The notes under the pieces are model-generated. The model saw nothing but the letters and a program-made list of their open reading frames with translations. It had not been told where the DNA came from and did not search any database. DNA of 64,000 nt from Podarcis pityusensis (taxonomy: Eukaryota): the NCBI GenBank assembly GCA_964106645.2, contig OZ067039.1; one strand, written 5' to 3'. This document shows positions 16,828 to 41,095 of this stretch, in pieces; within the stretch, counting starts at the first letter, position 1, and every line of letters starts with the position of its first letter. The position numbers and the translations under genes were made by a program.

Positions 16828-17735
16828 CCGTATTTTTCGCCCTATAGGACGCACCGGCCCATAGGACGCACCTAGATTTTTTTTGGGGGGGGGAATAAAG
16901 GGGGGGAATTATTTCCCCCCCCGGCGCGGGGCTGGGGCGGGGGAAGCCCGAGCTTCCCCCGCCCCCAGCCCCCAGAGCAGGTCGGAGAGCGCTGGCGAAG
17001 GTGAGCGCACCTTCGCCATCGCTCCCGGAGCTTGCAGGGCTGGGGGTGGGGGAAGCCCGAGCTTCCCCAGCCCCCAGAAAGGGCCTGAGAGCGCTGGCGA
17101 AGGTGAGCGCACCTTCGCCATCGCTCCCGGAGCTTGCGGGGCTGGGGGTAGGGGAAGCCAGAGCTTCCCCCGCCCCCAGCCCCCAGAGCAGGTCGGAGAG
17201 CGCTGGCGAAGGTGAGCGCACCTTCGCCATCGCTCCCGGAGCTTGCAGGGCTGGGGGTGGGGGAAGCCCGAGCTTCCCCAGCCCCCAGAAAGGGTCCGAG
17301 AGCGCTGGCGAAGGTGAGCGCACCTTCGCCATCGCTCCCGGAGCTTGCGGGGCTGGGGGTGGGGGAAGCCAGAGCTTCCCCCGACCCCAGCCCCCAGAAC
17401 AGGTCGGAGAGCGATGGCGATGGTGCGCGCACGTTCGCCATCGCTCTCGGAGCTTGCGAGGCTGCGGGCGGGGGAAGCTGGAGCTTCCCCAGCCCCCCCC
17501 CGAACGGGTCGGAGAGCGATGGCGAAGCTGCGCACAGCTTTGGCATCGCTCTGGGAGCTTGCCGGGCTGGGGGGATAGCTTCCTGAAGCCTGGAGAGCAA
17601 GAGGGGTCGGTGCGCACCGACCCCTCTCACTCTCCAGGCTTCAGCGAAAGCCTGCATTCGCCCCATAGGACGCACACACATTTCCCCTTCATTTTTGGAG
17701 GGGAAAAAGTGCGTCCTATAGGGCGAAAAATACGG
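16828..17735 (+). mobile_element. Tc2/pogo-like MITE (family E copy 1) carrying a GC-rich hairpin tandem array
   Basis: Perfect 27-bp TIR CCGTATTTTTCGCCCTATAGGACGCAC (16828-16854, 17709-17735) with TA on both sides. Orientation is arbitrary, defined relative to copy 2. Confidence 0.92.
16929..17570. repeat. Six-monomer GC-rich tandem array; 102/109-bp alternation gives a 211-bp higher-order unit
   Basis: The anchor GAGAGCG(C/A)TGGCGA recurs at 16985, 17087, 17196, 17298, 17407 and 17512 (spacings 102, 109, 102, 109, 105). Confidence 0.93.
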
Positions 17736-18370
17736 TAATTTTTCCCTAGTATCTGTAATAGTTTCCCCAGAGCTTCCTTTAACACTGCTGGCATGTGATC
17801 AAGCATTTATCACCTGCTTCACTCCTTTAAACAGCCTTCTTTGGCAGTTTTAAGCCGGCATGATGAGCAAGGCTTGAGTATCCATGTGGTTCACCTCAGG
17901 CTTCCACGAATCTTGCCCACTTCCTAAGGTGGAATGAAATGAAAGGCATCCATTACAGTTGTACTTCAGGCACAGCCATTGATCTGGGGCCTTAAATTGG
18001 AATGGATGCAAGTGGTTTCATCCACAGAGTGCCTGTGCTAATGGATGGCAGCAGGTCACCAAGGAGTCCTCCCCACCTTTCTGAGGGTCAAAACAGAACA
18101 AGTGCCCTTTGCCACTTGAAATACCTCTGTAATTTGTGCAGCCCACTGTGCTCTTGCAAGAAGAGTGTTTTGATTCCAGAGGTTGACTAGGGCTTCAACA
18201 GGCCTGTTCCATTGCTGGGAAGCTTCACCAGAGCCATCCAGAATCTCTTTAGATCATAAACATCTGAGGGCAGATCATTGTAGTAGGTCAGGAGTTCTAG
18301 CAAATCTAAACTTTATTGGATAATGCCAGTAGCGGTGGGTGGGTGTGGTGTGGTGGAGATGCTGCTGCTC

Positions 18371-18742
18371 CTTTAAAGCCCTAAACGACCTCGGCCCAGT
18401 ATACCTGAAGGAGCGTATTGTTCACCCCCATTGTTCAGCCCAGACACTGAGGTCCAGCGCCTAGGGCCTTCTGGCGGTTTCCTCACTGTGAGAAGTGAGG
18501 TTACAGGGAACCAGGCAGAGGGCCTTCTCGGTAGTGGCGCCCGTCCTGTGGAACACCCTCCCATCAGATGTCAAGGAAATAAACAACTACTTGGCTTTTA
18601 GAAAACATCTGAAGGCACCCCTGTTTAGGGAAGTTTTTAATGTCTGATGTTTTTAATGTTCTGTTGGGAACCACTCAGAGTGGCTGGGGAGGCCCCGCCA
18701 GATGGGTGGGGTATAAGTAATTAATAGTAATAGTAATAATAA
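18371..18742 (+). mobile_element. 5'-truncated L2 LINE 3' end with (TAA)n-like tail
   Basis: Encodes FKALNDLGPVYLKER...QGTRQRAFSVVAPVLWNTLPSDVKEINNYLAFRKHLKAPLF (the L2 C-terminal RAFS..AP.LWN.LP motif), then a short 3' UTR and taatagtaatagtaataataa. Confidence 0.88.
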
Positions 18743-19971
18743 AAAAAATTATATCTGGACAGGGCTGGGGCAGGGCAGCAGCAAAGTCACATGGGTGCAC
18801 TGGAGGGACTAATCTGAAGCCCCTTCCGATGGACTGGCATGTCCTCAAGATCACTGCTGTCCTGCCTCAGCACTATCTAGATACGTAGCAATGACATGGC
18901 TGTATGGAGGGTCGCTGCACCTCTGCTCATGACAAGTAAGTTTGCTTGTTTGATTTTTGAAAAAAACAACAACATATATGTGATGAAACATTGGAAGGCC
19001 AGAAGGGGTACACTTTGCAGGGTTGGTTTACCAGTATAGCAATTGGCCCCTTTAGCAGGGGGGTGGAGGGTGTAAGTATGTCAGACTTGGAGACACAGCT
19101 TTGTATTCTGCCGTGGAGATCATGAACCCTAAGGCCACCCCAGTTGAGAAGAGTGTTGTCTTTTATTTCAGCAGGACCTGGGGTCTGACTTCAGACTTGG
19201 CTCGCAGGGAATCGTGGTCTAGCTTGATAGGGCCTGGCATATAGTGCGTGTGGGCAAGCAATTAAATTGCTAATGCTCGTAGGTAATCCTGCATCTGGTG
19301 TGGTCTCAGGCTGAGCAGGAGCTGCAAATTTAGTAGGCTCGCCCGGAGCTGTGGCCAAGGCCTAGTCATGCAGAGTGGGCCCATTAATAATGTTCACTTT
19401 AAATCAGTTTAGATTAACCAGTGTCATATCTGTCAGGGATGGTGAGCTGTGAGAGTTTGTTGCTCTTATGAACATTGATTTAGATTAAGTATCTCCCTTG
19501 CTTTTTTTCCCTTTGGCCTTATTATGCTGATATAATTAAAGTTCCAATATTTTCTGGTTTGTGGCAATGCAGAGTCTGGGACAGACGCCGCACTCGTATT
19601 AATCTTTATTAAATGGGAATGTATTTCTCAGAATAGAGGACAACAGCTAATCTTGCCTATCCCCAAATATGCTATCGATGTGGAGATGCTGTAGAGTCAA
19701 TGTGTGAGAGGAAGGCTTTAGAGATCTGTGCTCTGTGCTTTGCTAGGAAACCTGATTTATAAGGAGCCTGGCATATTCTCCCCCACCTCCCCCACTAAGC
19801 ATTTGGGAGAGCTGAAACTCCAGGATAATGGTCTTTGTTTAAAGGATTGCTCTGCAGACCTGTGGAAGGAAGATTTGGCTTTGGCTGCAAAGGAAGTGCC
19901 CCTTTGAACCAAACAATTGTAGAACTTCACCCTAATGACCATGTGGACTATAGCAGGTGCACCTGCACCTG

Positions 19972-20016
19972 CATGTCAGGTGGTTTTGAGTTCTAGAACT
20001 CAAACCACCTGACATG
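19972..20016. repeat. 45-bp near-perfect palindrome with no spacer
   Basis: catgtcaggtggttttgagttct|agaactcaaaccacctgacatg. The left arm has one extra T. Confidence 0.93.
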
Positions 20017-20929
20017 AAGGTTGATTCTGGATTCTGTCACATCAGTTCATCTGTCTGTGCAGAATGGAGAGAGCTGGTTCAGGGCAACAAATCAAAAGAT
20101 ATGTTGGTGAGGATCATTAGTGTGCTCCCATGCCAACCCCTCCCCTGAAAGGCTACTGTTTGACTGTCCTTTGGCATCCATCCTTTCTGACAGGACAACT
20201 GTAGGAGACGGACAGGATAATTAATTGTGCCCCCCCCCGCACATATTTTCATGATGATGGGATTGTGTTCTCTTTGGCTTATTCTGGGACTGGGTGTGTG
20301 AGCTTATGGAAACTAAAGGCTGCTGGCTCTGGATAAGGCTATCAGCAGGAAGGAGATCCATGAGCTTCTATCACAAGGCTTCTGCCAGATTTCTAGTTCC
20401 TGGCCAGCTACATTCCAGCCACACACCCAAGCTCTTCATTTGCAATCCTGTACAAGCTAAATTTCCAGTCCGACTCATGCCAGCACTTGTATTTGACCAT
20501 CGGACACTTGTAGGAGCCTCAGCTGTCTCTTGTTTTGATACAGTCCGACAGATGGACAGACACATTTGGTGCTGCGCATTGGGTATAAGTAATTACCTGC
20601 TTTCATGGGTGATTCAGGGTTGCATTGCCTGCTGCCTGATCTTGGGAGAGATCTCACAATAGCCAGAGCAAAAGATCACTACAAAATTACTAGCTCAGGG
20701 GTTCCTAGCAGAGAGCTTCCTTTCCTAAAGCTATCTGTGTTGTTGCTAAACTTTCCTGACTTTAGTGATCCAGGTCCCAAGTATTCCAATCCTCCTCTAA
20801 CAACTAAGGAGGAAAAATAAATGAGCTGAGGATGTTGTCTCGTGGGTAGGTGGAAGATGACATCTACCACCAAAGCAGCATGGTCTTGATCCAAAATACG
20901 CTGGTAGTAGACCCCTGGTTTTGCTTGTA

Positions 20930-21182
20930 CAGTGGTACCTCGCAAGACGAATGCCTCACAAGACGAAAAACGCGCAAGACGAAAGAGTTTTTCGTTTTTT
21001 GAGTTGCTTCGCAAGACGAATTTCCCTATGGGCTTGCTTCGCAAGACGAAAACGTCTTGCGAGTTTGTTTCCTTTTTCTTAAAACCGTTAATACCCAGGG
21101 TAACCGTGCTTCGCAAGACGAAAAATTCGCAAGACGAAAAAACTCGCAGAACGAATTAATTTCGTCTTGCGAGGCACCACTG
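20930..21182. mobile_element. Tigger/pogo-like MITE family C, rich in CGCAAGACGAA motifs
   Basis: TA|CAGTGGTACCTCGCAAGACGAAT...ATTTCGTCTTGCGAGGCACCACTG|TA. About 10 direct or inverted copies of the inner TIR motif. Confidence 0.9.
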
Positions 21183-21344
21183 TATAATGGAAATATGCAC
21201 AATGTTCTCCTTTGGGAGACTGAGGAAATATTGTGTAGTTCTGGTACTGCTAATACTGCAAGGAACTGCTTTGATATTACTGTTCATTGCCAATTGTTTT
21301 CTAGAAAAGGTTGTCAGTTGGATAAATAGAATATATATACTATA

Positions 21345-21696
21345 AAAGGTAAAGGTAAAGGACCCCTGACAGTTAAGTCCAGTCGCAAACGACTCTGGGG
21401 TTGTGGCTCTCATCTCTCTTTACTGGCTGAGGGAGCTGACGTTTGTCTGCAGACAGTTTTTTCAGGTCATGTGGCCAGCATGACTAAGCCGCTTCTGGCG
21501 AAACCAGCCGTTTATCTTCCCACTGGAGCGGTACCTATTTATCTACTTGCACTTTGACGTGCTTTCGAACTGCTAGGTTGGCAGGAGCTGGGACCGAGCA
21601 ACAGGAGCTCACCCTGTCGCGGGGATTCGAACCGCTGACCTTCCAATTGGCAAGCCCTAGGGTTAGTGGTTTAGACCACAGTGCCACCCACGTGCC
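21345..21696 (-). mobile_element. Sauria SINE (lacertid type), internally deleted
   Basis: The (ACCTTT)n tail reads aaaggtaaaggtaaaggg on +. B-box GGTTCGAATCCC on -. TSD tatatatactata/tatatacactata (1 mismatch). Confidence 0.9.
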
Positions 21697-22163
21697 TATA
21701 TACACTATAGAGACAAGCATATCCAAAGCTCCATAGCTTTTTTAGAAGCAGAACTGGATTGGTGCTTGTCAGTGGTCAGACAGGGTCATCATCCCAGGAC
21801 GTTTTGCTGCCTGAAGTGAAGGACAAGATGGCAACCTCCCCATTCCACATAAAGAAGTTAACCAGACTGGCAGCTGAATCTTCTTCCACTGCATCCTCCA
21901 ACTGAGTAGGCTGCATCACTCTGCTTACTGATAGGACTGGCCCTCCTGGCTGAGCTGAGCTGCAGGCGGTCATTGAGTGGTAGTGGGATCAGGCATCAGA
22001 GCTGGGGGATAGAAAAAGGCCAAAGCGGGTCAAGACACTCATTGAAAAGGCAAAGGCCTAGCCTGAACAGAAAGCTGGTGAGGAGAGCTAATGGCCAGCC
22101 TGGATGGAAGGAGCCACTCCCAAGAGCCAGAAATCCTTTACTGCCTGAGGAAATACTCTAACC

Positions 22164-22275
22164 CAGCTTCCCCAACCTGGTGCCCTCCAGATATTTTGGA
22201 TATAGAACTTCCAGTGGGAGTTGTTATGGGAGTTGTAGTCCCAAACATCTGGAGGCACAAGGTTGGCAAAGGCTG
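22164..22275. mobile_element. ~110-bp palindromic hAT-type mini-MITE (family P, best-preserved copy)
   Basis: Ends CAGCTTCCCCAACCT / AGGTTGGCAAAGGCTG with a fold-back core (ctccagat...atctggag). Perfect TSD ctctaacc (22156-22163, 22276-22283). Degenerate relatives lie near 3345-3475, 6875-6975, 26225-26280, 31015-31150, 33740-33835, 38285-38390, 42598-42700, 44775-44830 and 59025-59190. Confidence 0.8.
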
Positions 22276-24332
22276 CTCTAACCTGTAGTCAGTGGCTTAC
22301 TACATGTGGCAACACTGCAGAAAGCTATCAATTCCAGGTTCCAGCCCCAGCAGTTCCTGATATCAGCTCTTCAAGAGCTAGCAAGAAAGTTGTGTCTTGT
22401 TTGTACATGCCAATTATTTCAAACAGTGGCAATATGGAATTGCCCAATTTTTAAACGATGAAGAGACTGTTCTAGTTTGTTTGGCTCTGGTGAACATTTC
22501 AGTCCTCTGTTTCCATCCTTCCTTCATAAAGGGTTTATCTCTCTGTTTCTTTGTTGAACGAGAAGTGGGCCTTTTCTCTACTTATGATCACTAAAGGTCT
22601 TCTGCAATCATGTTGTTTTAAGTTTTTTTAAAATCAGTGTTTGGAGCTATGAGATACCTCTGTGCACAGCCATATTCTGCTGGTTCACCCCTCCCTCCCT
22701 GATAAATTGCTGCTTGTGTATGATAAATATGGTAAAACTTGGGGGTGACTGCTACTCATTCAATCAGAACAAGCCACAAATTACTGGGTAGTGTAGAGTC
22801 TTAATTTCTTGTTATTTCCGTGTGGTTTCAAAACGGCATAGTAATGAACCACAAAGTGTATCGTCTGGGTAAGCCCTTGGACAGATGTCATTGGGGCTAA
22901 TACTATTTTCTCAATCCCCCAGCCTGCTCACTTCAACAAAGAATGATCTTCCCTTCTTGTCATAAGCTCGTGTTTACATTGCTGCCGTGTGTAGCATTGG
23001 CTCCTTTGCTCCACCCCGGAACGGCTGAATCTCAATGGCGATGGAAGTGGTTTCCCTCTGTTTGGGAGCTGTTGGGATCAGAGTCGCTGGGTTCATGGAG
23101 AGATGATTCCATATCAATCGCCTTTCAGATCTGCTGAAGCCCTGAGCACCCCACCAAGACACGTGGCTGAGCAGTGATAGCTGAGCTTCCCTATTAAATG
23201 CTTCCTGCTGTTGTCTGAATGTACAGCCTCTGTTCTCCCCACCTGCGTTGTCTTGGATCCTCTATCTGAGCCCTGCTGGGGTCTTGGGGCAGGGACCAAA
23301 ACAAAGTGCTTATTTTATGAATGGGGAACGCCAAGTGCCTGAAGCTTGAAATGCACATGGCTCTGCCATGGTCCAGTGCAAAAGTCCATGTGGAGAGAGG
23401 GGGCAGGCAGGCAGGTAATGGTTGCTGAACCTTTGCTTCCACTACATCCAAATTCTATATCCTGCTTCTGATGGTGGCAAGAGTTTCTTAAGGCAATGCA
23501 TAAGCTGGAGATGATGCAGAGTTGTGTGCTCCTTTTGGTTTTTCTGTGTTTTTGAATTTTGGTAATGGAGGTGGTAGCCTTTACCTCGAAGATCAAATAC
23601 ATTCTGGGTCCATGGTAATGAACATTCATTACAAAATGTGGCAAAATGGAGGTCCTGCACAACAAACCTTCTTCCCCCAAATGCTGGACTTTTTGTGATA
23701 AGGGGAAATGCACTGTGAAGTGTTGGACAACACTTGCTTGACATTGTCTAATCTCCCTGCAAACAAAGAAGGGTGAATGCTCAGCAAGCAGGTCATCTAC
23801 AGGGGTCCTACAACTTCAATTGTGCAACCTGAATTTGCCAGCGTGTGATTGTATCCCACCCCAAAATAGTGACGTTCTGAAACCACCCTCAGTTTTTAAT
23901 AAAGCAGCAAAGTTAAGAAACAGATTGTGTTGGGAAGGAAGGGAATGCCAGGGCTGATTCAAAAAAACATTTCCTCCACGCATAAATATCTGCGGAACTG
24001 ACTCACCCCATCTCTTCCAGCAGGTGTCAGCGCAGAGCACAGAACGGTAGCTTGGGGATGGACAAGTAGAGAAGAAGGGAGGGGGGGCTTTGAAATGCAG
24101 TACCATAAAAAAAGCCCTCCTTTTGCACTGCTTCTCAGCACCCTGTGAGCCCCGTAGAACTGGGAAGGGTTCCCCTGAAAAGGCTGCAAAGTGTGTTTCA
24201 GGCAGATAAGTCTTTGCCTTTGAAGTATGGCAGCAAACTAAAGCGCCTCCCTCTTGTTGTTGCTGCCAGCCACTGAGAATTAATCACAGCCACATACAGA
24301 TAAGAGTACAAAGCAACACAGAGCATTGTGCC

Positions 24333-24349
24333 AGAGAGAGAGAGAGAGA

Positions 24350-24384
<35 letters not shown>

Positions 24385-24392
24385 AGGCAAGC
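24333..24392. repeat. Compound (AG)n(GGCA)n microsatellite
   Basis: Read directly from the sequence. Confidence 0.95.
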
Positions 24393-24695
24393 AAGAATGA
24401 GAGACATGTGGTGGGGTGGACCCAGGGAAAGGAAGGACGGATCCAGAGTAGGAAGGTCAGGAGGAACAGAATTTGGCAGGCAGGCAGGAGGTGCGAGTCC
24501 TATTCGGAGTCCTCTGGCAGTGTGGAAATGTTGGCAAACTGTTCTGACTCTCTTTCCTTTGTACTTTGCATCTCTTTGCTTGATGCAGCTCTCATTTTAG
24601 GGAACATTCTATCTTTGACTCCATAGAGCAGAAATACAAATTTGTGGTCTTTGGGAGATCTTTCTCTCTCTCTCTTTCTGTGTAGGATATATATA

Positions 24696-24936
24696 CAGTG
24701 GTACCTCGGGTTAAGTACTTAATTCGTTCCAGAGGTCCGTTCTTAACCTGAAACTGTTCTTAACCTGAAGCACCACTTTAGCTAATGGGGCCTCCTGCTG
24801 CTGCTGTGCCGCCGGAGCACAGTTTCTGTTCTCATCCTGAAAAAAGTTCTTAACCTGAGGTACTATTTCTGGGTTAGTGGAGTCTGTAACCTGAAGTGTA
24901 TGTAACCTGAAGTGTATGTAACCCGAGGTGCCACTG
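24696..24936. mobile_element. Tigger/pogo-like MITE family B copy 2
   Basis: TA|CAGTGGTACCTCGGGTTA...TAACCCGAGGTGCCACTG|TA. Collinear with 14638-14875. Confidence 0.92.
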
Positions 24937-27900
24937 TATATGCCTTCCACTCAAGGGCTGTGGGGGTAACGTGTTTAGGCCTACACATTGGCAGTGGGCA
25001 AAGCCAAAGTCAGCTGTAGATGAGATCAGAAGCAAAAGTGGGCAGGACCACATCTTCTCTCTCCTCACCCCCTGTTCTTCCCTGCTCAGGAGGCTGCCAG
25101 GGGAGATATAGATTGGTCTTGCTAAGGGACTGAACTGACTGCTTCCAGAGGGCTTCCCACCCATCCCTTCTTCTATTGCTCCATCCATTTAGGCCATTTG
25201 CCCCATTTCCACCCTCCTTTCCCTCAGGGCTCCCCCGACCCACATGAAATTATGTTGAGGGTTGCATGAATTTAAGCTAACAGCTGCAGTTTGAGCATTG
25301 CTGATTTTTTACTTTTGCAACTTGCCATATTTGGCAGGTGTGTTTGCTATCTTCAGACAGAGCTTGTGTTTATGACCATGTTATATCTGCAGAGAGCCCA
25401 ATAAAGCATGTAAACACCATTATTGAAGGAATATCGAGTCTGCAGCATCAGGTGGGTGGTTGGGGAGTCAGGAAATGCCAATAATAAGTTTGCTTGTGTA
25501 TTTAGCTTCCTTGTGTATAGGGCTGCCATCTGATCATCTTTTCCAAAATGACATAGGAAGTTTGTAATGCAGCCAAGAGATAGTAGGCAATAACAGCAGG
25601 GACAAAGGGCTAAAATCTTTTTATCCGGCATAAAATAATTGATCTGTTGAATTACAGTTCGGTGGAGTCTCAACACAGTGGGAAGTGGGTCAAGTTGTTG
25701 TCCTTTCAGAATATGAACCTGATGGAATTGTTCAATTATCCATGAATATGCGAGTGGTAAATAGCAGCATCAAACAAAAGAATAGTATTTGCTGCCAGTG
25801 ATTTACCTAACCATTTGGGGCAGATTGGCCACTAGCCACCATCTATTTGCGGCAGGAAGCTCTGGATACAGATACCAGTTCATGGGAGGGCTTTCTTTTC
25901 TTGGCAAGTCTGTTTGTTTAGTTGCTATAGTCTGGAAAGATTCACATTTAAGATTGAAAGTCACAGGACAATCCTATGCATGTTACTGAGAAGTAAGTCC
26001 CACAGATTTTAATGGGTCTTACAGGCAGTCAAGATTGCAATCCTGAATGCACTTACTTGGAAGTAAGTTCTTCATAACATGTACAGGATTGCACTGTGCA
26101 GTCTACTTGATGCTATAGAGGTGTCCATGCTAATATCACTTCTGAACATGAGTCATTCTCCAGTTTCTAGCCTTCACAGGTGTTTATTGTACTTTGCCAG
26201 CTGTGCTAGTTGGCAGAACTGTCTGTGGCTGACAGGAGTTGTTGTTTGGAACATCTGGAAGGTACCAGGTTGGAAAAGCTGGTCCACAGTAACACCTATT
26301 CATCCTTTTGCAAGTTCCATCCTGAGTTTCTGAACTTCCCAAAGGTGATTTGTGCTTTTGTTCGCTGATGCTTGGGATTTTTTTCTTTATGAGATAGCAC
26401 CTCTTGTAGAGCAGGTTGCTTGTGTCTGATGGTTAGCCAACGCCGAACTGAATATTTTCCCTGTACAAGGGGATGGTGTCTGACTTACTTCAGAGCAGCA
26501 CTAACATTATGATGACCTCTTTTTACTGGGGTGAGTCAGGCCCTTTTACTGATGGTTTGTATCTCTTTTAATAGCTGCGTTGTTTTTAACACAGAAGGTT
26601 TTCACCTTTATCACTGCTTATTGTACAGCTCTTACAATTTCATTGCTGAGTTGTGTGTTTTTGTTTTTCTCATAATAATCCATGTTGCATGTCATGTGAG
26701 CAGCAGAGAGGATGTCTTTTTGTGTGCTCTTCCTTGGGAAGGAGTGTTACTTGTGGGTCAGCACTTCATTACCCATGTTATGCAATCACTCTGCAACTCA
26801 CTGTTTGCTACTCCAGACTTGACCTAGTTTACATGATTTTCCCTGGGTTTCATTTGTAGGCCATCTTAAGAGTCCATTCTGTTTTCTGAATCCTTCTGCT
26901 GTATGTCTGGGACACATTTAAGGCAAGTGTGTTCCCATAAGCTCAAGATTTCTAATTTGGAAAGAAGTCCAGAGCTACAAGTAAAGAAACCAGAAAATTG
27001 TTTGCATGGAAGAATAATAATTTGAATGCTAAGTGAGGAAAGAATTAAGTAGCTATTTACACATGGCATCAGAATGATCTTTTTGCACCTGTGTTCTAGG
27101 TGTGTAAATGAAAACTCCATGCTACTCAGTTGTGTAACATGATTTTAAAGAGTTTTTCCCTTTTATAAATATCAGGTTTGAATTTTCTTCCTGTGTTCTT
27201 CTGCAAAGCTACTGCTCAAGTTTGGGCTACACCTATGGTTAATAAATCACTGAGGATGCTCATCAGTGGCCAGGATGTTTAAGCCAGGAACACATTATCT
27301 TCTTATCTCCTGTTTTTATATTGTTGTATATTCTCTAACCATGTTACATTTTAAGATTCTTCCCTGAATAATCCAGCCTAGTGCTGTGACTGACTTACAT
27401 GAGGTGGAGTGAATATGAGCAGAATTCTCAATGAGAAATTAGCTAGAGTAATTATTAGTATTTGAGTAATTATCAGCATCAGGATAAGGAGAAAGGTTAA
27501 TAAGGGGCTTTTTTTGGTAAATGTTTATTCCCCTGGGTGGAAGTGTGGAATGGAGGGCAGGAAGGAGGATGTTTCTTAGGAGTGTTGCTCTGATTTACAG
27601 ATACCCTTCTTCACATCTCATGCCTCTGTACCTTCCCACACCTGGTGAGAGATGGGGTGTGGAAGAACCTAGATGGATAGGACTCCTTCACAGTGCCACT
27701 GCGCCTTAATAGCTGCTTGGTTTCAAAGAAGGATCAAGAAACTGTCAAATTCCAGCTGTGTTAGAGTCCTACCCTGCTTCAAGCAGGTGAAGGTGGAACA
27801 GTCCTGGAGAGGTGTGAGCTGTAAGTCATTTACTGCATCTCATCCCATTCTTCTGGTACTGAATTTGGTATATATATATCCTTCTCAAATGCATTGTGGT

Positions 27901-28494
27901 TCCCTGTTCCTTCCTCTGCTTAAGAGGCCTGTTTCCTTAGTTTTCTACTGAAAGTGTTTTTGCCTACACTGCAAATGAAGTTCTAGGAGATAAAACCAGA
28001 ATTCCCTCTGGGACAATAGGAAAGAGACCAAAACTGTTAACACATTGTGGCAGGTGTGCCCACTCCTCTACGAATGCCTGGAGGATAGCAAATACGAAGT
28101 GTGGCAGAAGCATCTTGTCCATGGGTTTTTGTCATCTGATTCCTTGAGCAGGAGCAGCTTGCACAGGGCATATTTGTTGGTACACTTACCGTGCCAGAAG
28201 TCTTCTGTTTTTCCTGCGCAAGACACTCGGTCCCCACCATATCTAGCTTTCTTTTCTTTTCTTCTTTTTGGAAGTATAGAGGTGCAGACTTGCAAACAGC
28301 CATTCACTTTTTCCCTACAGCAAGTAAGAATCATTGCTGCACAACCAGTTAGAGCAACTCTGTACAATAATGAAATCTTGATGACCATGTTGCAAAAGCA
28401 TCATGTTTGCTGCTTGGTTGTTGCCACTATTACATGATGATAAACATGCACCTGATAGTATGCATTGACAGTTCTATGACCCTATGAAACCACA

Positions 28495-28686
28495 GGAACA
28501 CAGGAAGCTGCTTTATGCTGAGTCAAACTATTGGTCCCTCTAGCTTAGCACTGTGTACATAGACTGGCAGCAGCTCTCCAGGGTTTCAGAATGGGATCTC
28601 TTTCAGGTCTACCTGAAGGTCCTGGGGATTGAGCCTGGGACCTTTTGCATGCAAAGCAGATGCTCTGCTGCTGAGCAGCAACCTTT
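28495..28686 (-). mobile_element. Squam3-like tRNA-derived SINE
   Basis: Same family as 722-908 and 13572-13745. Further 3' fragments at about 52905-53056 and 57885-57965 (+). Confidence 0.75.
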
Positions 28687-29669: not shown

Positions 29670-32559
29670 ACAGAAGAGGTACCTAAGCTTGAAAAACAAG
29701 TGTCTGTTTCTGGGATGTCCCACACACCCGGAGCTTGGAAAGTTTGTTTCAAAAAGTAACTAGTTATAGTTTAAAAAAAACACACAAAAAAACCCCACAA
29801 CCCCAAAAAACCCTCCCCTCTCCTCCCCTCCCCTCCCCTAATTGCACTTGATGTTTGTCCTTTTGCAAAATAGATTAGTTCAGTTCACATTCAGTTCAGA
29901 TTCATCCAAATAATCCTTGGTAAGTTTATTCAGCATTTAGAAAGTTACAAGCTTCTGAGCTGAAGTGTAAGATACAAAAACCAAGAAACTAAGAAAAGAC
30001 ACACATAGTGAAATGTGAGTTGTTTATAACGCCCCCCCCCCACTTATTCTCTTTCAGGTTTAAGGCCCAAAGAGTCTATAAAGAGGGTTTTTTAATAAAT
30101 AAAAAAATCTAAGGGAGGAGCCACCTGAAATTATCTCACCCTTTTCTCAGGCTTTAGACTGAACTAGAAATCGTTCAAGTTCTATCCCAATATGAACTTA
30201 ATTAATGTACACTTCACACAGGCAGTTATGGGAACTGCTTTCAGATGCAGTTCAGAGATTTTTGAACTAATTCCGTGAATGTCATTAAAACCGAACTAGT
30301 TCCTACTAAGCACTGAGCACACCGCAAGTCAGCTCACATCCATCATATTTGTATTCTGCTTGGGGATCAGTGTGACACAGATGGAGTTCCCTCCCTATAC
30401 CCTCAAAACAGTCTTCTGAGGAAGGTTAAGCTGAGAGAGACTGTGGTTGACCTAAGGTCACCCAGTCAGCTTCACGGCTGATCAGGGATTTGAGGCCAAC
30501 TCCAAACACAGCATGCTATCTTCTGTGCCACCCTGGCTCTGATAGCTGCTTCATTGACGCCGTTGTACAGGCTTTTTATGTTTTGCTATTGGAGATCTCA
30601 TCCACTTACCTAGCACTACATGGCGGATTAATATAATTGTAGAATTACCCCAGTAGTTAAATGTTACTGCTGGAATGACTTAACACACCCACAGATCGAT
30701 TTCAAAACTAGGGTAAGAGTGTATTGATCGCTTGTGCTATGAATACAGCCCATAAAATGACCGGAAGGGTGCATTCGACATGACAGTGCATCTTAGGTGA
30801 AATTGTTGCCATGTTGAAGAAAAGAAGAGCCTATATCCAGCTTCTCACAGGTAGTGCCTGTAGCTGATAAAGCCACCAATTATAGTCCCAGATAATAACA
30901 AGTATGAAATAGATATAATAATGTATTTTTAGCAAACCAGTGGGTTTTTATAGAAGTATGCAATGTTTAGCGTTGTAATGAGTTCCTTATCAGATATAAT
31001 GGACTCTCTTTATAACAGATGTGGATAATGTGGGCCTTCAGTTGTGGACTACAGGTCCCATCAACTCTAGCCAGCAGGGCCAGTGGTGAGGGATGGTGGG
31101 AGTTGTAGTAGTCCAGGTACCTTTGGAGGGCACAGGATAGCTACCCTTTTCAGAATGAGAGACGGAAGTGAGCTACAGTGGACAGAAAGTCAGACTTGGA
31201 CCAGGGGGAACTGGGTTCAAATCTCCACTCAGCCAAAAGTCTCAATAGCTGAACTTGGTCAGTCTTAATCTTCTTTTGGCCACAAGTGAATACTTTTTGA
31301 ACTCTGAAGGTGTGTTGGGCTTGGGATGGAACATACCTTCAGAAACAGGCTCCATCTCTTATGTTCTACTCCTGATTTCTTCAGTGGACCAAGGAGAGCT
31401 TCTTTGTTGTGCCCCCAAGTATCTTCAAGACATCAGCTCACATGCAGAGAGTCAACTCCACAACAACATTCCCTTGGAGTACTGCTAAAGCTTGGAACCC
31501 GAACACCTTCTTTTTGGACTAGGGCAACTTTGTGTTACACTTGTAAGCTACTTTGGATGTTTTAATAGAAAAGTGGTATGTATGTAAATACGGACAAGAA
31601 TCTTTCGGAAGTATTCATAAGGCTTTTCATTTGGGCTGGTTTTGGGTATTTTGTGTGGGTGTTTATATTAGTTGTATCTGTTTTTTATATTCTCCGTTCG
31701 TATACGTTTTAATGTAATGTTCCTGGCACAGAGTCTTTGGAATTGGAGAGGCTTAAAAAAAGAAAAAAAGAAAAATCTCAGTTGCATGTACAAAGCGAGG
31801 TTGATTGCTAATGCAGATATTCTAGTAACTTCAGGTAGTGGCCTATTGACAAAGCTTTTAGCATTCAAATAGAAATAATTGACCAGCAGGGGGTTACAGA
31901 CTCTTGTAATGACCTATATTTGATATGCAGGAGAAAGAGCTTGCGGAATCAATGGAAGCTCCCCTTTCAGGGCCTTGGATTTCAGGCTAACTCAAAGACT
32001 CCTACATGTTACAATAGAAGCATGTGTTTAAAATGTAGCATATATCTGCTTGCTTCTGTCCTGTGCTCTGTGGCACAGCTTCCTTTCACTGTGTCTGCAC
32101 GGTGGGAAACATGCAGCAGGGAGACAGGTCAATAGCGGCTCCCTGCTGTATGTTTCTGTGGTATACATGCAGTAAAAAAGAGCAGGTATGCCTGTCTCCT
32201 CTCGCAAGGATGGTGCACTGAGGGAGGGAGAGACAGGCCCGTAGGAAGGATGAGGAGGGAGCTGTTGGCAACAAGGAACTCCTAGATGCGGGCCTGTGAG
32301 TGAAATAGTGATTTTAGGGTCAGGCCCATCCATGGACTGGGATACGTTTTAGCACAGTAATTGGAGGGACCATTGCAGGACTTCCAGCAGGAATTGGCAG
32401 CTGCAGAGTCGCATTCCAGTGCTTCTCTCCATTTTTGCTGTGCAGCTGTCAGGCCGCGTGTGAGGGCTCCTCACAATTGCACCTGCATTCCTGGACACCT
32501 TCACCACAGGCCCAGGCCCTGTTCCCTGTAGGGGGCCAACCTCCTCACGTCTCTGCCTC

Positions 32560-32870
32560 TGTCTGTCAGCCTTCCTTAGCTCAGGGGTGTCTCTCTTAAT
32601 CAAATACATTTGTTTTGTAAAACTGACTAAAAATAATCCGGGGCTGATGTGTGCTGGATGTTGGCGGTGAATCAAAGGCGCTGCTCTAATTAAACGGGCC
32701 CCAGTTTGTTTGTGAGCCGCATACATTTCCATGCTAATCAGCCACACGCCAGGATCCTGCCTCCTAAGCCCCACTTCCTTTGCCTGATTGAAAAGTATGC
32801 AAATGGACGGATGGAGTCTATTTATTGCAACGAGGGAAATGAAGCTGCAATGCGCGCTGTGGGGCTTTAT
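32560..32870. promoter_or_regulatory. Candidate intronic enhancer / conserved non-coding element
   Basis: Non-repetitive and CpG-retaining. Clustered ATCAAAG (32671), TAATTA (32687), ATGCTAAT (32731), ATGCAAAT (32797) and TGTCAG motifs. Based on motifs only. Confidence 0.35.
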
Positions 32871-33870
32871 TTGGGGACTAGGGTGGGGAAGCGCTTTGGT
32901 TGGGGGCGGGTTGTGAAGATGAAGGATGTCCCAGTTACTAAACATTGCCAGTGGAACTAGAGGGAACAAAATGAATTACTCATTTCCGATTAAGTAATAG
33001 CATAGCCAGGCACAATTTTGTTTTTGTTTTTATGTGGCTTTGAATGTGTCACTTAGACTTTTCTCCACAATTTACCTACTACTACTGAGATCCAGTGGGA
33101 ATGAATGGAAGGCTCTCTGACCGAGGCCCTCTGTGCTTTCGCTTCCAAATCAGTAGACTATTCCCCTATATGGGAACACCATGAGAAATCTCCAAGAATG
33201 GGAACTACATGGATGGTAAAGTCAGGAGGTGGGGCTTGGTTAGGGCCTAAAATTGAACTATTGTTGTCTGTTGGACATTTGATGGGTGCTGTGTGGAAAG
33301 TGTTGCTTTCTACGTCTGGGGAAATAGAACTGCTATTTTCCTGGTTCCACTTCAGCTTCACAGACAGGTTTGTTTTCTGTAATGTAATATGCTGTGTCCA
33401 TCTTTTGGAGTGAGATTGAGGGTGATGGGTGCAGAATGAAGAATTCCCACTCTTACTGCCAAATGTTGCACTTGCCTGACAGAAAGACTGGAGAAGCGGC
33501 TTTAGTACCAGGCGCAAGAGACAATGGTGGGATTTGGTGCGAATTTTATGTGCCCACATTTGGTTATCCAGGAAGCTGATAGGGTGAAATAGTTTCTGCT
33601 TTCCTATATACGTCTCTCTGTGTAGGAAAGTACTTACGACATGCATCTCCCAGAAACATATAAAAGACGAACTGAATTTCTAGAGTCTGTTGGTAACTCA
33701 TGTTAGCCACTGCTAGCATGGTAGATCAATATCTCCTAATTTGTTACCCTCCAGACATTTTGGACTATCAGACCCAGCCAGCACGAGCAGTGGCCAGATT
33801 GTGGGAATTGTAGTCCAAAACATTCTAGAGGTTAGTGGGAAAGTTGTGGCATATCATCACTTTAACTATA

Positions 33871-34096
33871 CAGTGGTACCTCGGGTTAAGAACTTAATTC
33901 GTTCTGGAGGTCTGTTCTTAACCTGAAACTGTTCTTAACCTGAGGTACCACTTTAGCTAATGGGGCCTCCCGCTGCCGCCACGCCGCTGCCGCGCAATTT
34001 CTGTTCTCATCCTGAAGCAAAGTTCTTAACCCGAGATACTATTTCTGGGTTAGCGGAGTCTGTAACCTGAAGCGTCTATAACCCGAGGTACCACTG
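33871..34096. mobile_element. Tigger/pogo-like MITE family B copy 3
   Basis: Perfect 18-bp TIR CAGTGGTACCTCGGGTTA with TA TSD. Has one fewer subterminal repeat than copy 2. Confidence 0.92.
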
Positions 34097-35445
34097 TATG
34101 TCATAGAATTAGATAGGTCCAAAAGGCCTCTGAGTCTAGTTTCTTGCTGTGAGACAGGACTAGGTTACTGACCATTCCCCTCACAGTTCAACTTACACAA
34201 GTTTGACCATAAGTGTGTCACAAGCAGATACTTTCTGGGCAAGTAAACGACTCATGCTCAGCAGCCAGGTGGCAGTTAACTTTAGAGAATTAACCCTATT
34301 GTATTTCCTCCCTGCCGTGGGTTGGCTATGACCCTGGGGTGCCTTTTTAATGTGGTTATGGCTTCTATAGTGAAAGCAAGGTCTTTAGGATAAGCTTTAT
34401 TGTCACTGTGAGTGGTAATGGGATTAGAGCATTTACTATATCCCTTGCCCAGCACAAAGGTGCTGGTTTACCTTCTCTTCTGTTATGAAATACAGGCTAT
34501 GGGGAGGCAGAACATGGGTCCTTGACCATAAAACAAAGGTGATTATATGTGTTAACTCTCCACTAATGTTACATTAAATGCACTATGCCGTTGATACTTA
34601 GGGAAAGTGTACTAGGCTATAAGCTTTCTGATGCTCCACCTTTTTTCCACATCAGAGGACATTTTAAGAACGGCACAATTGCTAGGTTGCTGGGAAAGTT
34701 CAGCAGGGGAGAAATGCTGATCAAAACAAAGCTTAAATAATCCAGGTGTGTGACAAATGGGGTTGTGATAGCTGTCCTGCAAGTGTGTTGAGAGAGTTAA
34801 TGTTAAGATGAGTAAAACATTGCATACAATGACCATATGACAAAGAAGCTAGGTTGTGATGATTGTGTCCATACAGATATTTGGCAATATTTCTGTAGTT
34901 GCACATTAGGTGGGATGAAGTTCCCAGTAGATTAAACTCTTCCTCCACCTAGTGCTCTCCCAGTCTAGATATGTAATGGAAGGCTCACCCCAGTTAAAAC
35001 AGAGCTTTGTGTTTCATCTCCTCTGCAATGCCTGTGTGGCTGCCACTATTTCTCTGCACACCCCTTACCCGCCATTTGCACTTTCTTTGGAGCTATTAAC
35101 ACATTATCCAGAAGTCCCCTGCTTCATTTAAAGTTCATTAGATTTAATTGAAGAGCATTAATGTGCACTGAAGTGCATAATGTAGTTTTATTTTAAATGG
35201 AAACCAGGTGGAGCTATTTCTTGTCCTAACTCTTTCTCAAGGAGTAGTTTGATTAATGAAAGGAGGCAAAAATAATAATAATAAAAAATAAGGCAACTTG
35301 GATAAGGGTTCTAAAGCAGCAAGGGGATTGGGAGGGGCTCTTTTTGGCTGGCAAGATTAGGTTGGTGGTTCATTATTTCCCCTTAAATAAAATATTTAGA
35401 AAAATGCATGAAAGATGGGTTTCTGTTTTGGAGAATCACCCTGAC

Positions 35446-35768
35446 CAGGGGTAGGCAACCTAAGGCCCTGGGGGCCAGATGCGGCCCAATTGCCTTCTCA
35501 ATCCAGCCCACAGACGTTCTGGGAATCAGCATGTTTTTACATGAGTAGAATGTGTCCTTTTATTTAAAATGCATCTTTGGGTTATTTGTGGAGCCTGCCT
35601 GGTGTTTTTACATGAGTAAAATATGTGCTTTTATTTAAAATGCATCTCTGGGTTATTTCTGGGGCATAGGAATTCGTTCATTTCCCCCCTTCAAAATATA
35701 GTCCGGCCCACCACATGGTCTGAGGGACGGTGGATCGGCCCACAGCTGAAAAAAGTTGCTGACCCCTG
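35446..35768 (+). mobile_element. hAT MITE family A copy 4
   Basis: Family A sequence. TSD accctgac/atcctgac (1 mismatch). Ends about 370 bp upstream of exon 36137. Confidence 0.9.
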
Positions 35769-36136
35769 ATCCTGACTCTGCATTTCCTTCTCTGCTTCTA
35801 CCTGTGGCAGCCAACACATGCTGTTGGGATGGGGTTCTTGGAATTCCCATTGGGCTGATTTATCAAACATCAGCCCATGACTTTGACCTAGTTGGAAGTC
35901 ATTAAGTTTTAAGGAACATGGTGGTGGTTGACAGGGTAAGGGCTGACTATCATATACTGTATACCTAAAGCTCCTCATAGGTTTTTCTTTCTTTCTGTAG
36001 AAAGAACTGTTCCCCCAACAGCTAGCTATTGGTGTGTATTGGCACATTATTCCTTTGCCACCCAACAAATGTCTCCCATCTTGATGATACTAGGCATCAT
36101 AACAGCAAATGCTAACGCTGCCGCCTTTTCTTTCAG

Positions 36137-36277
36137 ATCCTTGTGGACCCTGCCAATCCCATTGGACGTTCAGCATTGCAGTATGAGAATGTCATAGCCC
36201 ATGATGGCAGCTCCATCCTGCGGGACTTAGTGCTCAGCCCTGATCTCCAGTACCTCTATGCTATGACTGAGAAACAG
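36137..36277 (+). CDS. PLXNA1: Plexin-A1 internal coding exon (C-terminal Sema domain), 141 nt, phase 0-0
   Basis: Acceptor ttttctttcag| and donor CAG|gtaaga. Translates to [47 protein letters not shown], matching the plexin-A1 segment [36 protein letters not shown] as I recall it. Confidence 0.95.
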
Positions 36278-38483
36278 GTAAGAACTTGAGTTTGTCCACA
36301 GCTGGCCCTTTTACGTGATTTTAAGCTTAGCAGTAATGAGGCACAGCCTTTTCTCTCTGCATAGTACATCTGTGTGATATTTCTCCAGCACAGTGTGAGG
36401 CAGGACTGTCAGATTCTCAGAGCAACCAAATAAAAATACTTTCTTCGAATACATCACTCCCTTTATTAGTACAGTTCTGATTAGATGTCGAGCTCATGGA
36501 GTGATCATGGAGCTCATTGCAATAAAAGTGCTTGTATGAGTGATGGGCTACACCTTTACTTGATTCAACACCAGAGCGACAGCTCTCCTGAGGGCTCCTT
36601 TTTAATGAACAAGCAGATTCCATCATCTGATGGGTGACAGCTTAGGCAGAACTCTGTGTGCGTTGAGTTTCAGCACGCCCTGCAAATGGACAGAATCAGC
36701 CAAATGTGCAAGTGTGTTAAAGCTCAGTGTGCGCTGCCAGCCATCACACGATTGCATATGGTACAGGTGGTCAACACAAGCAAGGGCCATGGCTGGTCAT
36801 GAAAAGAGGCTCTTGGTCCACTCATTTTAACTCCGCAAGAAACTTCTCTGCTGTTTCTATGGCAGCACAGTGCAAGTGCTGTACTTTGCCATTCCCCCCC
36901 ACCAACAACTAAAGACCCAAACTCAGCTTTCCTCATTAAACCTTGCCAAAATTGGTATGGTGTGCATTAGTCACGAAAACATTTGTATTATCAGTTTAAG
37001 CTGCTTAATCCTTCTTGGGCTGCTGCGCATATTATTAGTTACTCTTTTCCAGAATAACTAATAATATATACTGAGTGTCCGATGCCAAAATTATTATTTT
37101 TCTGTGTTTTCTTAGTCATCTCATGAATGTAATGTTCAAACTTGGCAGGACAGTAGCAGACCAGTCACATATAAAGTGAGATCTCATCCTTAGAGTAAGT
37201 AATACATGGGTGAGGGAAACTAAGGCCTCTCGATGCCTACCACTCCATGCTTGTGTAAAGTTTCCCACAAGCACCTTTTACCCAGTTGATCTCACTCATT
37301 GAAATCAGGGGAATGAGAAAGCACCCAATGGTGGAGGCCATAGGTAGACGGACCTTAGGTAGGTAAGCCACAAACAGTGGAAGTGCCTGGAAACTCCATC
37401 CACCTTGTTTTCATGAAGCAGTGGGCCCTCGCTTTATACACAACGGAGGGAGACCTGGGTGTAAATGAATAGGTCTGCTGCTACCATGGCTGGTTTGGCT
37501 CTAAGAGTCCCCCCTCCCCCCCCCATTTTGCTCTCAGGTTTCTTTTCATAGAATGAATAATATCTATTTGAGTCTGTCCTGAGGGGAAACAAACTTACTA
37601 TTAGGAAGCAGATGAATCATGGATACATGCAACATCTCTTCTAAAGCAGACTCATTAGGTCTGTTTTGCAAAAGCTCTGTCATTTGACAGACTGTCTCTG
37701 CTACAGGTATTGGAAAAGTTTCTTTGCACTCCTCCAGCAAGATAAACTGGTGTTTATATGAGTTAGGAGCACTGTGGCTGCGTAGCCCAACCTTAATTCT
37801 GTTGGGCTGCAGTTTCTTTACCTTTTTACACTGGGATTGCTTTATTCTCCTCTTGCAGTCTGTCCTGTAGCTAGGTCTGAGGATCCTAACTGCCCACTAA
37901 ACCAGGAGAGGGAGAACTTCAGCCATGCATGATTTACTTTGTGTTTTACTAGAACCAGCCGGAGCCAGGTGCAAAAGACATAGGCTTATAATTAAAGAGC
38001 TAGGTTCCTTTTAGCAGCTGCTGAGGACCAGGATTGTTTTCAGTATCAGAGCTGTGCTGAGCTCACAGCCCTTCTACACAAAAATTCAGTCCCCAGTTGC
38101 CCAAAGCATACTTCAGTGCAGCAGTCTAATTTCAGGGAGTCGTTTTGTTGTCTCTGTTTTTAAAGAATTGGAACTGAGAAATCCTTGCCAATCCATGCAT
38201 ATAACGATGGGTTCACACAGGGGTTTGGGCAATGACAGTGCTCTTCCTTCTCCCTCTTCCCACTGCCATGCCTATTGGACAGGGATAGTTAATATGGTGC
38301 CCTCCATACGTTTTTGGACTCCAACTGCCATCAGCATGGTCAGAATGAATGTGAGTTGTAATTCAGCCTTGTTGGCTACCCATGATTTAGGGTCCTAAAG
38401 ATAAAAACTAGCACCTTGGGTTGAGCCTGGAAGTGTACAGTATCACTGAAGATCAAACAGGACCAGATATATATGCTCTATCA

Positions 38484-38850
38484 GGGTGGCTCTGTGGTCT
38501 AAACTGAGCCTCTTGGGTTTGCCGATCGGAGGGTTGGCAGTTCTAATCTGCGTGACGGGGTGAGCTCCCATTGCTCTGTCCCAGCTTCTGCCAACCTAGC
38601 AATTTGAAAGCATACCGTCCTGAGTAGATAAATAGGTACTACTGCGACAGGAATGTAAACAGTGTTTCTGTGCACTCTGGCTTCCGTCACTGTGTTCTGT
38701 TGCGCCAGAAGCATTTTAGTCATGCTGGCCACATTACCCAGAAAGTTGTCTGTGGACAAACACCGGCTTCCTTGGCCTGAAAGCGAGATGAGCGCTGCAC
38801 CCCATAGTTACCTTTGACTGGACTTAACCATCCAGGGGTCTTGTACCTGT
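38484..38850 (+). mobile_element. Sauria SINE, older or different subfamily
   Basis: Reverse-complement homology to 29319-29669 (gacggggtgagctccc, gtagataaataggtac, tagtcatgctggccaca, agcgagatgagcgc). Confidence 0.88.
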
Positions 38851-40322
38851 CCCGTTCTAGACAGTAATCTGACAACAACATTTTGAGTCAGCTGAAGCTT
38901 CTGCATCTTTTTCTGCGGCAGCCCACTTGTTCTACATTACAGTAGTCCTGTCTAGATGTTACTAAAATGTGAATGACTTGCTAGAACAGCTTTCTTTAGG
39001 GAAGTTAGGTCAAAGGCACTCCTAGTCATACAGCCACCTAATTAAGCTCACCAGTTCTAATGCTGGCATTTTACGTGCAAGAGTAAATTGGAACAAAAGC
39101 ACTAGGTTCAGCCATTTAAAATTAAAAGGCAAAAAGACAGTCTATGACTTGGCAGCACAGCATGTCATTCCTTGAGTTGTTTTTTTCTTTTTTTTAAGGC
39201 ATTCACATTAACACACAGCCTGCCTTTTATGTAAAATGTTATGTGGCAATTTGAGGTGTCTCGCCTAACTTGGTCGATGCAGTTGTTGGCCAATCACAAG
39301 TACCTTTTTTGCGGGCACTTCCATGGGCACTGCCCTGATGCAGCATCGATAGAGGCATATATAAAGGTAAGGGATGCACACAGCATCTGGCAGAAACGCT
39401 GCAGTGATAAGTCTGAATTAAGGAGTGAATGGACTACTTATCCCAAATGAGCCAAGGAAGCTGCCCCAAAGGCCTTATCTGAGAGGCACCTGGAGGCAAC
39501 ATATTATAACAAACATGCTTGCCCTTTAAACTAGAGAAATAGTAGAAGGAGCTACAATAGAAAATCTACTCTACATACCTTCACATACCTCCTTCCTTTT
39601 GAGCTCTGAGACTGTCAAATCAAATTTTTTTTTTTAATATAACATAGAATTCTTTCCCCTTTCATCAATGATTAGCAGCATTTACTGAAATCCCTGCTCC
39701 CCTTGGAATGCATGCCTGTCTAAACCTTTCAGGCTTGCCTGCATGGCTGCTAAATAGCTCTGTAAAAACAGCTTTGTTGTTTGGTAAGGAACTGTGGAGT
39801 GGCACACCTGCTACTGATGGAAGCTGTTCTAATGGTCAAGCAGGGCTGGAAAAAACCCAGACACTTTGATTGCCCAGGATCCTAACTTCTGATGCCATCA
39901 CTAGCAATTTTCTGTATTCAGCTCTGTGCAAGACTGATTCCTAGAAATTTAATACTCCCCCCCACCCGAACTGGTCAGGTACCCCCCCAGCCCTGAAAGA
40001 GATCTCTGGATGATGTGATTTTATTTTTTTTTATTTTATTTTTGCCCCAGTTGCCTTTAGGTCAAAACAGCAAGCTATCCTAATGTGGTTGCAAGGCAAG
40101 TTGTCTCCATTGCATGCAGCAATTGAAGAAAGGCGTACCAGATATGGAGAGTGTAGCTTGAGGCTGCTTCATTAGCAAAGTGAGGTGCTTAGACAGGATA
40201 TATTTAGAGATTCTTCTGCTTGTTTACAGAGTTAAATATATGTTGTTGTAGGAGTGATCTGGGAGGAAAAAAGTACCTGTCCTTTCAAGATCATAGGAAG
40301 ATACAGACCTTTTTTATATATA

Positions 40323-41095
40323 CCGTATTTTTCGCTCTATAGGACGCACTTTTTCCCCTCCAAAAATGAAGGGGAAATGTGTGTGCGTCCTATGGAGCGA
40401 ATGCAGGCTTTCCCGGGCTTCTTGCAGCTCCGCGCCACCCTCCAGACCCCCGCGCGAAGCCGCGCGGGGCTCCGGAGGGTGGCGCGGAGCTGCCTGCGCC
40501 CCAGGGCTTCCTGCAGCTCCGCGCCACCCTCCCGATCCCGGCGCGAAGCCGCGCGGGGCTCCGGAGGGTGGCACGGAGCTGCCTGCGCTCCAGGGCTTCT
40601 TGCAGCTCCGCGCCACCCTCCAGACCCCCGCGCGAAGCCGCGCGGGGCTCCGGAGGGTGGCGCGGAGCTGCCTGCGCCCCAGGGCTTCCTGCAGCTCCGC
40701 GCCACCCTCCCGATCCCGGCGTGAAGCCGCGCGGGGCTCGGGAGGGTGGCGCGGAGCTGCCTGCATTCCGAAGCCTGGTGCGCACTGAAGAGCGCGCCCG
40801 GGCTTCGCGCACCTCTCCACAAGCCTGGGGAGACCGGCTCGGTTCCCTAGACTTGCGGATAGCAGGCTGTTCTGGGGGCTGGGGTCGGGGGAAGCTCGGG
40901 CTTCCCCCGCGCCTGCCCCGTGCCTGGGGAGGGAATTTTTTTTTCTTTATTTCCCCCCCCCAAAAAAAATAGGTACCTTGAACGCACCTTGTTTTAGAGG
41001 GAGAGAACAAGAAAAAAAATTTTTTCCCTGTTCTCCCCCTCCTATGATCCGGTGCGTCCTATGGTCCGGTGCGTCCAATGGTGCGAAAAATACGG
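40323..41095 (-). mobile_element. Tc2/pogo-like MITE family E copy 2 (inverted relative to copy 1) with a different internal array
   Basis: TA|CCGTATTTTTCGCTCTATAGGACGCAC...GTGCGTCCAATGGTGCGAAAAATACGG|TA. The first ~90 bp are the near-exact reverse complement of 17646-17735. Confidence 0.92.
40415..40765. repeat. Four 89-bp hairpin monomers, A/B alternating (178-bp higher-order unit)
   Basis: GCAGCTCCGCGCCACCCTCC recurs at 40424, 40513, 40602 and 40691. Monomers alternate AGACCCCCGCG / CGATCCCGGCG. Confidence 0.93.

Follow-up and report, generated by a model that had tools for sequence, protein, structure and literature searches.

Passer-type transposons of Podarcis pityusensis with conserved ends and variable hairpin-chain interiors

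Introduction

A MITE family (MITE, miniature inverted-repeat transposable element) is usually short and uniform in both length and sequence. The family considered here breaks this picture of a single uniform consensus, and two of its members lie in a 64,000-nucleotide stretch of DNA from Podarcis pityusensis (NCBI GenBank assembly GCA_964106645.2, contig OZ067039.1), which we call the window. The closest described parallel is the DTC84 MITE of Donax trunculus, for which the relevant part of the published account (PMC3879986) reports flanks that serve as a "cassette," a variable number of repeats, a palindrome in each repeat and copies that are all unique. DTC84 differs, according to the same account, in having one core repeat that is present in up to five copies in fixed order, an AA target and a pearl-like character; the Podarcis family has at least 20 monomer families, approximately 100 hairpin families in free order and an identified transposase. 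MITEs with an internal monomer in tandem are also represented by miDNA4, a Tc1/mariner MITE of Xenopus tropicalis, and by Xmix/Xstir of X. laevis, each of which, as far as the relevant sections go, has one satellite monomer per family and yields satellite DNA (PMC9659126), whereas many monomers occur here and none was seen outside a transposon shell among the loci examined. In another lizard, Anolis, non-autonomous hobo (hAT) families likewise share their ends and have interiors diversified by recombination between elements (PMC3014272). Their cargo consists of captured transposon fragments in about 16 stable families, palindromes are not mentioned in the text searched, and exchange between these elements has been proposed to yield new autonomous families; the same paper describes Anolis TcMar-N4 as related to Tc2.

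Template switching during gap repair or replication has been proposed, in the pertinent passages on the Goblin MITE (PMC3814204) and on Pack-TIRs (PMC8277862), as a source of inverted subterminal copies and of chimeric elements with terminal inverted repeats (TIRs). Those are single founding events, unlike the repeated, family-wide remodeling found here. The Passer (PS) group of the pogo superfamily is itself known from autonomous elements, and the consulted portions of its descriptions contain no hairpin-chain derivatives, variable arrays or chimeras (PMC9976928, PMC7386202). Coral CMITEs (PMC2872659) and Zv817 of Zootoca (PMC10058329) are, to go by the relevant parts of their descriptions, other elements. 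Each ingredient of the Podarcis family thus has a precedent in DTC84, miDNA4 or Anolis hobo, but the combination is undescribed in the open literature searched, where we found no account of a family with about 100 interchangeable hairpins and 20 amplified monomers, although an entry in Dfam or Repbase may exist. Standard repeat libraries would be expected to split such a family or to miss it. The family offers, in a vertebrate germline, well over a thousand natural replicates in which hairpins arise, loops flip, substitutions are mirrored and arrays grow, and its genome also encodes an intact, very young transposase; this makes testable the long-standing question of whether MITE interiors and tandem repeats arise in excision repair or in ordinary replication.

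Two Gene-Less Passer Elements in the Window

Copy 1 (16828..17735, 908 bp) is a non-autonomous element in minus orientation relative to the autonomous element, delimited by its ends, by TA duplications at 16826..16827 and 17736..17737 and by an empty site. In the order of the window it comprises a 3' TIR with a 17-bp inner repeat of the TIR motif (16828..16872, minus strand; Tandem Repeats Finder [TRF] and alignment), a "C-type" 3' subterminal region whose homologue sits within copy 2 (16873..16925, minus strand; alignment), an array of six two-hairpin monomers of 109, 102, 109, 102, 109 and 103 bp (16926..17573; TRF), the 62-bp palindrome H1 (17583..17644), and a conserved 5' end made of the TIR and an inner inverted copy of it, homologous to the autonomous 5' end (17646..17735, minus strand). 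H1 is the commonest module, its 48-bp core having 338 exact copies in the genome. The site of copy 1 is empty in two related organisms (C and G; runs X17 and X24), where alignments skip 910 bases, the 908 bp of the element plus 2; this confirms both the TA duplication and a recent insertion. Contigs of two further organisms (A and B) contain the junctions of copy 1.

Copy 2 (40323..41095, 773 bp, plus strand), flanked by TA at 40321..40322 and 41096..41097, belongs to a chimeric subfamily of which 21 copies were examined. Its conserved 5' end (40323..40412, plus strand; alignment) is followed by an array of four 89-bp single-hairpin monomers (40411..40764; TRF), by an interior related to the C-type lineage (40765..40974, plus strand) that includes an internal C-type 3' subterminal region and a short hairpin at 40886-40909, and by a 121-bp 3' end from another lineage (40975..41095, plus strand). 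No strand is assigned to the arrays, H1 or the TA flanks. The two ends of copy 2 differ at 3 of 27 bases, and its 28-bp 3' TIR matches, base for base, that of the youngest large autonomous group (L229-L236). Since copies 1 and 2 lie in opposite orientation, the 90 bp that they have in common at 97.8% are the right end of copy 1 and the left end of copy 2.

An earlier, sequence-only reading of the window had proposed the coordinates, inverted ends, flanking TA and both arrays, and in these respects it proved accurate: TRF finds periods of 102, 109 and 211 at 16926-17573 with about six monomers, and periods of 89 and 178 at about 40411-40764 with about four. Its description of shared ends plus some 90 bp also stood, whereas its view that a single hairpin was otherwise shared fell short, as there is a second common block of 106 columns at 84% that includes a subterminal region. 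The alternation of A and B monomers holds in both window copies but not as a fixed order in the subfamily of copy 2, where runs such as BBBBBBBB and BAAAAABA exist; switching between A and B is nonetheless enriched there (81 of 147 neighbor pairs against 59.5 ± 4.7 after shuffling, with none of 2000 shuffles reaching 81). Both elements fold far more stably than their shuffles (z of -35 for copy 1 and -21 for copy 2; 20 shuffles each). Open frames run across the arrays, as expected for GC-rich repeats, and an Rfam scan of the window returned no match. Neither array is crossed from end to end by a read or contig of the public runs examined, so that the assembly is the basis for the exact number of monomers at the two loci; pieces of the arrays recur at 0-1 differences in contigs of those runs. 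For copy 2, four runs gave no empty-site joint, three of the four having no coverage of the flanks.

Family Membership and Variety of Interiors

The TA dinucleotide plus the 27-bp end has 2,822 exact matches in the 1.515-Gb genome, against none for the reversed control. The TIR is short (<30 bp) and begins with CCGTA; it agrees by eye at 24 of 28 bases with the Passer consensus oligo given in the supplement of PMC9976928, where the rows for lizard PasserC from Anolis and Zootoca resemble these ends as well. We extracted 180 paired elements, of which 135 came from loci picked by end patterns only. The latter sample is biased toward elements from contigs C1 and C2 that are shorter than about 1.8 kb and have a near-perfect sequence at one end; both sets exclude autonomous and DDE loci, and 18 loci with no paired end, several of them truncated or with decayed ends, stand outside the counts. 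TA flanks both sides of 169 of the 180. On the evidence of the TIR, the TA target, the transposase domains and the DD35D spacing, described below, we classify both window elements as derived from a Passer (pogo, DD35D) transposon and as gene-less. They are MITE-like in being non-coding, in having TIRs and target-site duplications, in their high copy number and in an interior unrelated to that of the autonomous element. They are not MITE-like in uniformity: lengths range from 237 to 1771 bp, and 110 of the 135 copies differ from their nearest neighbor by an indel of at least 20 bp, the other 25 having a neighbor free of any large indel.

The interiors are dominated by hairpins, which occur in 133 of the 135 copies and cover a median of 58% of the interior, compared with 0.3% in shuffled interiors (first 109 copies). 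At the thresholds used there are about 100 hairpin families (92 in an earlier grouping and 101 in a later one), and these are arranged in 106 distinct orders among the 135 copies, 93 of which were found once. Arrays are present in 48 of the 135 end-selected copies, and 20 monomer families could be distinguished among 49 array-bearing elements, both window copies included. Relatives of copy 1 have one, two or three monomers where copy 1 has six; the subfamily of copy 2 has 3-17 monomers over 21 loci while diverging by only 1.4% outside the array. Of 89 monomer variants, 18 recur at other loci. The proposal of one family with shared ends in which palindromic modules are swapped and amplified is borne out by these variable interiors and arrays, together with the chimeras described below. 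The outcome that had been named in advance as its refutation, two fixed and invariant subfamilies, is contradicted by the 106 orders, the variable monomer number and the 20 monomer families. Monomer lengths cluster at 89, 99, 106-110 and 118-119 bp, a spacing of about 10 bp that shared ancestry may explain. One locus taken for a multi-kilobase array (L224) has 4.3 units only.

Three smaller observations concern the family as a whole. Position 14 of the TIR tends to covary between the two TIRs and the inverted inner copy (of 135 elements, 59 have C,C,C, 37 have T,T,T and 2 have A,A,A), a pattern suggestive of either copying between ends or tracking of a transposase preference. Seven related Passer derivatives (L207-L213) lie within 250 kb (G000:C2:116.01-116.26 Mb), by local hopping or segmental duplication. 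Four elements (L044, L213, L080 and L141) have internal insertions that we take to be retroelement-like.

An Autonomous Partner

An autonomous pogo-type partner, predicted from the window alone, exists in the same genome and has related ends. It was reached through a genome search with the subterminal motif. Two other routes failed: matches to Pfam DDE_1 were mostly Tigger elements with other ends (0 of 30 fetched loci fit), and BrkDBD gave 2 weak, unrelated matches. The transposase has 425 amino acids; of the two proteins scanned, both have DDE_1 and HTH_Tnp_Tc5 and one also has BrkDBD, and by our own count 35 residues separate the D of LDQF from the D of QPLD, the DD35D arrangement. Thirteen of 90 matches contain stop-free, full-length transposase frames. 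In two pairs, transposase genes on separate contigs agree at all 1278 nt, and genes within the sets L227/L228 and L229/L230/L231 are identical or near-identical across contigs; autonomous copies with such genes are 2637, 3906 and 4162 bp long. The family has been recently mobile, and its transposase may still be active and could be a candidate tool. The MITEs (109 short elements) align to two autonomous copies almost exclusively within the first 85-90 and the final 50-110 bases, and from these shared ends we infer that the 425-residue protein mobilized both window elements.

Chimeras and Nested Insertions

Copy 2 joins two lineages, its 3' 121 bp being 91.8% like L060b and the next 290 bp 88.6% like L044. 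It consequently carries two alternative 3' subterminal regions, for which loss alone is an insufficient explanation. A second chimera, L237 (G000:C1:128372611-128376885), encloses an intact transposase gene between C-type ends and hairpin modules and retains the ancestral 3' subterminal region internally; this composite was a single copy among the 20 loci fetched, and L053 has the same junction with no transposase gene. L237 may be a non-autonomous shell that regained a gene, a path by which, according to the proposal made for Anolis (PMC3014272), new autonomous families could arise. More widely, of the 36 common hairpin families, 16 are found in combination with at least two kinds of 3' end, and shared ancestry could account for some of these.

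Elements of this family also insert into one another. Two intact cases were found: L286 occupies a subterminal TA in a second element, and L272 lies within the subterminal region at a 5' end. Both chimeric end-swap junctions lie at subterminal TA sites, which makes nesting a real rival route for end swaps; it is also a likely source of breaks inside elements. The subterminal site reads TA-CCG-TA or TA-CCA-TA in L237 and L053, the junction of copy 2 reads TA-CC-TA, and the 5' end of copy 2 bears the variant that is typical of the lineage that supplied its interior. Subterminal regions are also present in the family as inverted copies.

Signs of Template Switching

The sequence-only reading had invoked template slippage at hairpins, and signs of switching were indeed found as loop flips, arm copying and mirrored changes. 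Creation of hairpins and inversion of their loops have been ascribed to (inter-strand) template switching in the part of PMC10710096 that bears on this point. Among 178 monomers in the subfamily of copy 2 there are two in which the loop runs backwards and one arm has been overwritten with the complement of its partner, although both may descend from one inherited event. Hairpins flipped in place, between flanks that stay colinear, occur in at least 4 of 50 families, a count taken from an identity-based comparison in which the row for family 11 was not scored as a flip.

Mirrored changes were counted among non-CpG variants common to at least two elements. When homologues were chosen by pairing, there were 29 two-sided changes (25 mirrored, 4 not) and 75 one-sided ones, with slid controls giving 1-3; when they were chosen by identity only, there were 24 two-sided changes (18 mirrored, 12 of them transversions, and 6 not) and 156 one-sided ones, with slid controls giving 5-11. 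An earlier, narrower comparison involved too few cases (7 of 12 paired). The mirror effect is therefore real in direction but modest. Finally, AAGCC/GGCTT stands at 203 of 1054 ends of shared blocks, against a background of 8.0%, which fits jumps at the bases of hairpins.

How the Interiors May Have Been Rebuilt

We consider it probable that a recently mobile Passer family keeps roughly 50-110 bp at each end while its GC-rich hairpin middles have been reshuffled, likely by template switching and likely with the aid of nested insertion. A transposase that needs the ends only would leave the interior free to change. A polymerase stalled at a hairpin could then jump to the other arm or strand, which would create new palindromes, copy one arm onto the other and flip loops, while jumps between short words shared at hairpin bases, within or between copies, would delete, duplicate or swap modules. 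Slippage or unequal exchange, with or without hairpins, would set the length of arrays, and transposition would multiply each new variant so that each founds its own small subfamily. Breaks from excision, including that of nested copies, are the likely trigger, and nested insertion would add end swaps. Host function is not required for this explanation. Its products are seen directly, namely shared ends, a partner, varied interiors, variable arrays, two chimeras, nested insertions and flips; what can only be deduced is when the switches took place, in excision repair or in replication.

Several points weigh against this explanation. Replication and excision repair predict the same products, and sequence alone is silent on their timing. 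End swaps may not need template switching, given the nested insertions at TA, and a module found in several lineages could have been present in their ancestor and since deleted from others. Choosing homologues without regard to hairpin pairing lowers the mirror excess, the counts are non-independent because the copies are related, and selection for folding would likewise produce mirrored changes. About 80% of block ends have no AAGCC/GGCTT. Only L237 and a few matches of the L072/L008/L041 type tie autonomous 5' regions to MITE interiors, and a derivation of the short hairpin from the autonomous 5' region, suggested by a likeness seen by eye, was dropped when a motif search there found none.

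Among the alternatives, nested insertion as the driver of the chimeras deserves most attention, unlikely as we think it is to suffice. Under it, a copy lands at a TA within another copy, the transposase acts on the outer ends or on one end from each element, inner ends are deleted, and plain slippage and deletion explain the rest with no switching between copies. The nested L286 and L272, the short TA-bounded motifs at the junctions of L237, L053 and copy 2, and the donor-type 5' end of copy 2 all speak for it, while TA sites are scarce in the interiors (14.3 per kb) and loop flips, mirrored substitutions and inverted subterminal copies are left unexplained; it complements template switching more than it replaces it. 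Selection at the level of the transposon is a still less probable reading, in which folding of hairpin chains aids excision, repair copying or escape from silencing, and mirrored variants spread. Hairpins are nearly universal and far in excess of shuffled interiors, and mirrored changes are commoner among shared variants than in controls, as this would predict; the young autonomous copies have nonetheless multiplied with almost no hairpins, a short one-hairpin subfamily spread too, and loop flips with arm copying are single-step mutations for which selection is unnecessary. We give very little credence to the reading that these are ordinary fixed MITE subfamilies, many in number and under-sampled, or that the arrays result from misassembly. 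Certain subfamilies are uniform apart from the array, as the group of copy 2 is, a minority of copies have a neighbor free of large indels, and neither window array is spanned by a read; fixed subfamilies are, however, largely refuted by the range of monomer number, the recurrence of monomer variants at other loci, the large indels and the variety of hairpin orders, and assembly error sits poorly with array pieces in contigs of public runs and with copy 1 junctions in two organisms.

Template switching aided by nesting can also be taken further. On a bolder reading, which we offer tentatively and regard as possible though somewhat doubtful, the Passer family would be one recombining pool with a reusable shell of ends, in which switching invents hairpins and mirror-corrects them, modules and the transposase gene cross between lineages (the L237 shell having regained autonomy and spawned MITEs such as L053), and new higher-order minisatellites arise faster than point mutations.

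Arrays, Minisatellites and CpG Content

The sequence-only reading had made hairpins the driver of amplification. As a requirement this fails: arrays nearly free of hairpins vary among autonomous Passer copies, whose 91-bp and 113-bp arrays contain little hairpin sequence, and unrelated Tigger elements are arrayed likewise. In 7 of 8 Tigger copies (first 600 bp) a hairpin-free tandem array of about 146 bp (144-157 bp) lies upstream of the gene (L165, L171, L173, L176, L177, L183 and L187), and arrays inside DNA transposons are consequently not peculiar to Passer in this genome.

The family had further been proposed as a source of minisatellites and as a portable CpG island, and neither proposal was borne out in full. 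Tandem monomers of variable number do occur inside elements, but none was seen outside a transposon shell: all 15 H1 loci examined have TIRs on both strands, and among 100 listed of 393 matches to the 89-bp unit, all 21 arrays examined are enclosed, the longest with 17 units. By composition, 121 of 135 copies qualify as CpG islands under loose limits and 64 under strict ones; CpG sites in H1, however, change 3.3 times faster than the remaining sites, which suggests germline methylation.

One further element of the window belongs to another family. At 20929-21185 lies a TA-flanked, Tigger-type MITE of about 255 bp with 16-bp inner repeats, whose ends match those of Tigger elements; Tigger elements with such ends have near-intact 575-residue frames and are very common among the 150 DDE_1 matches.

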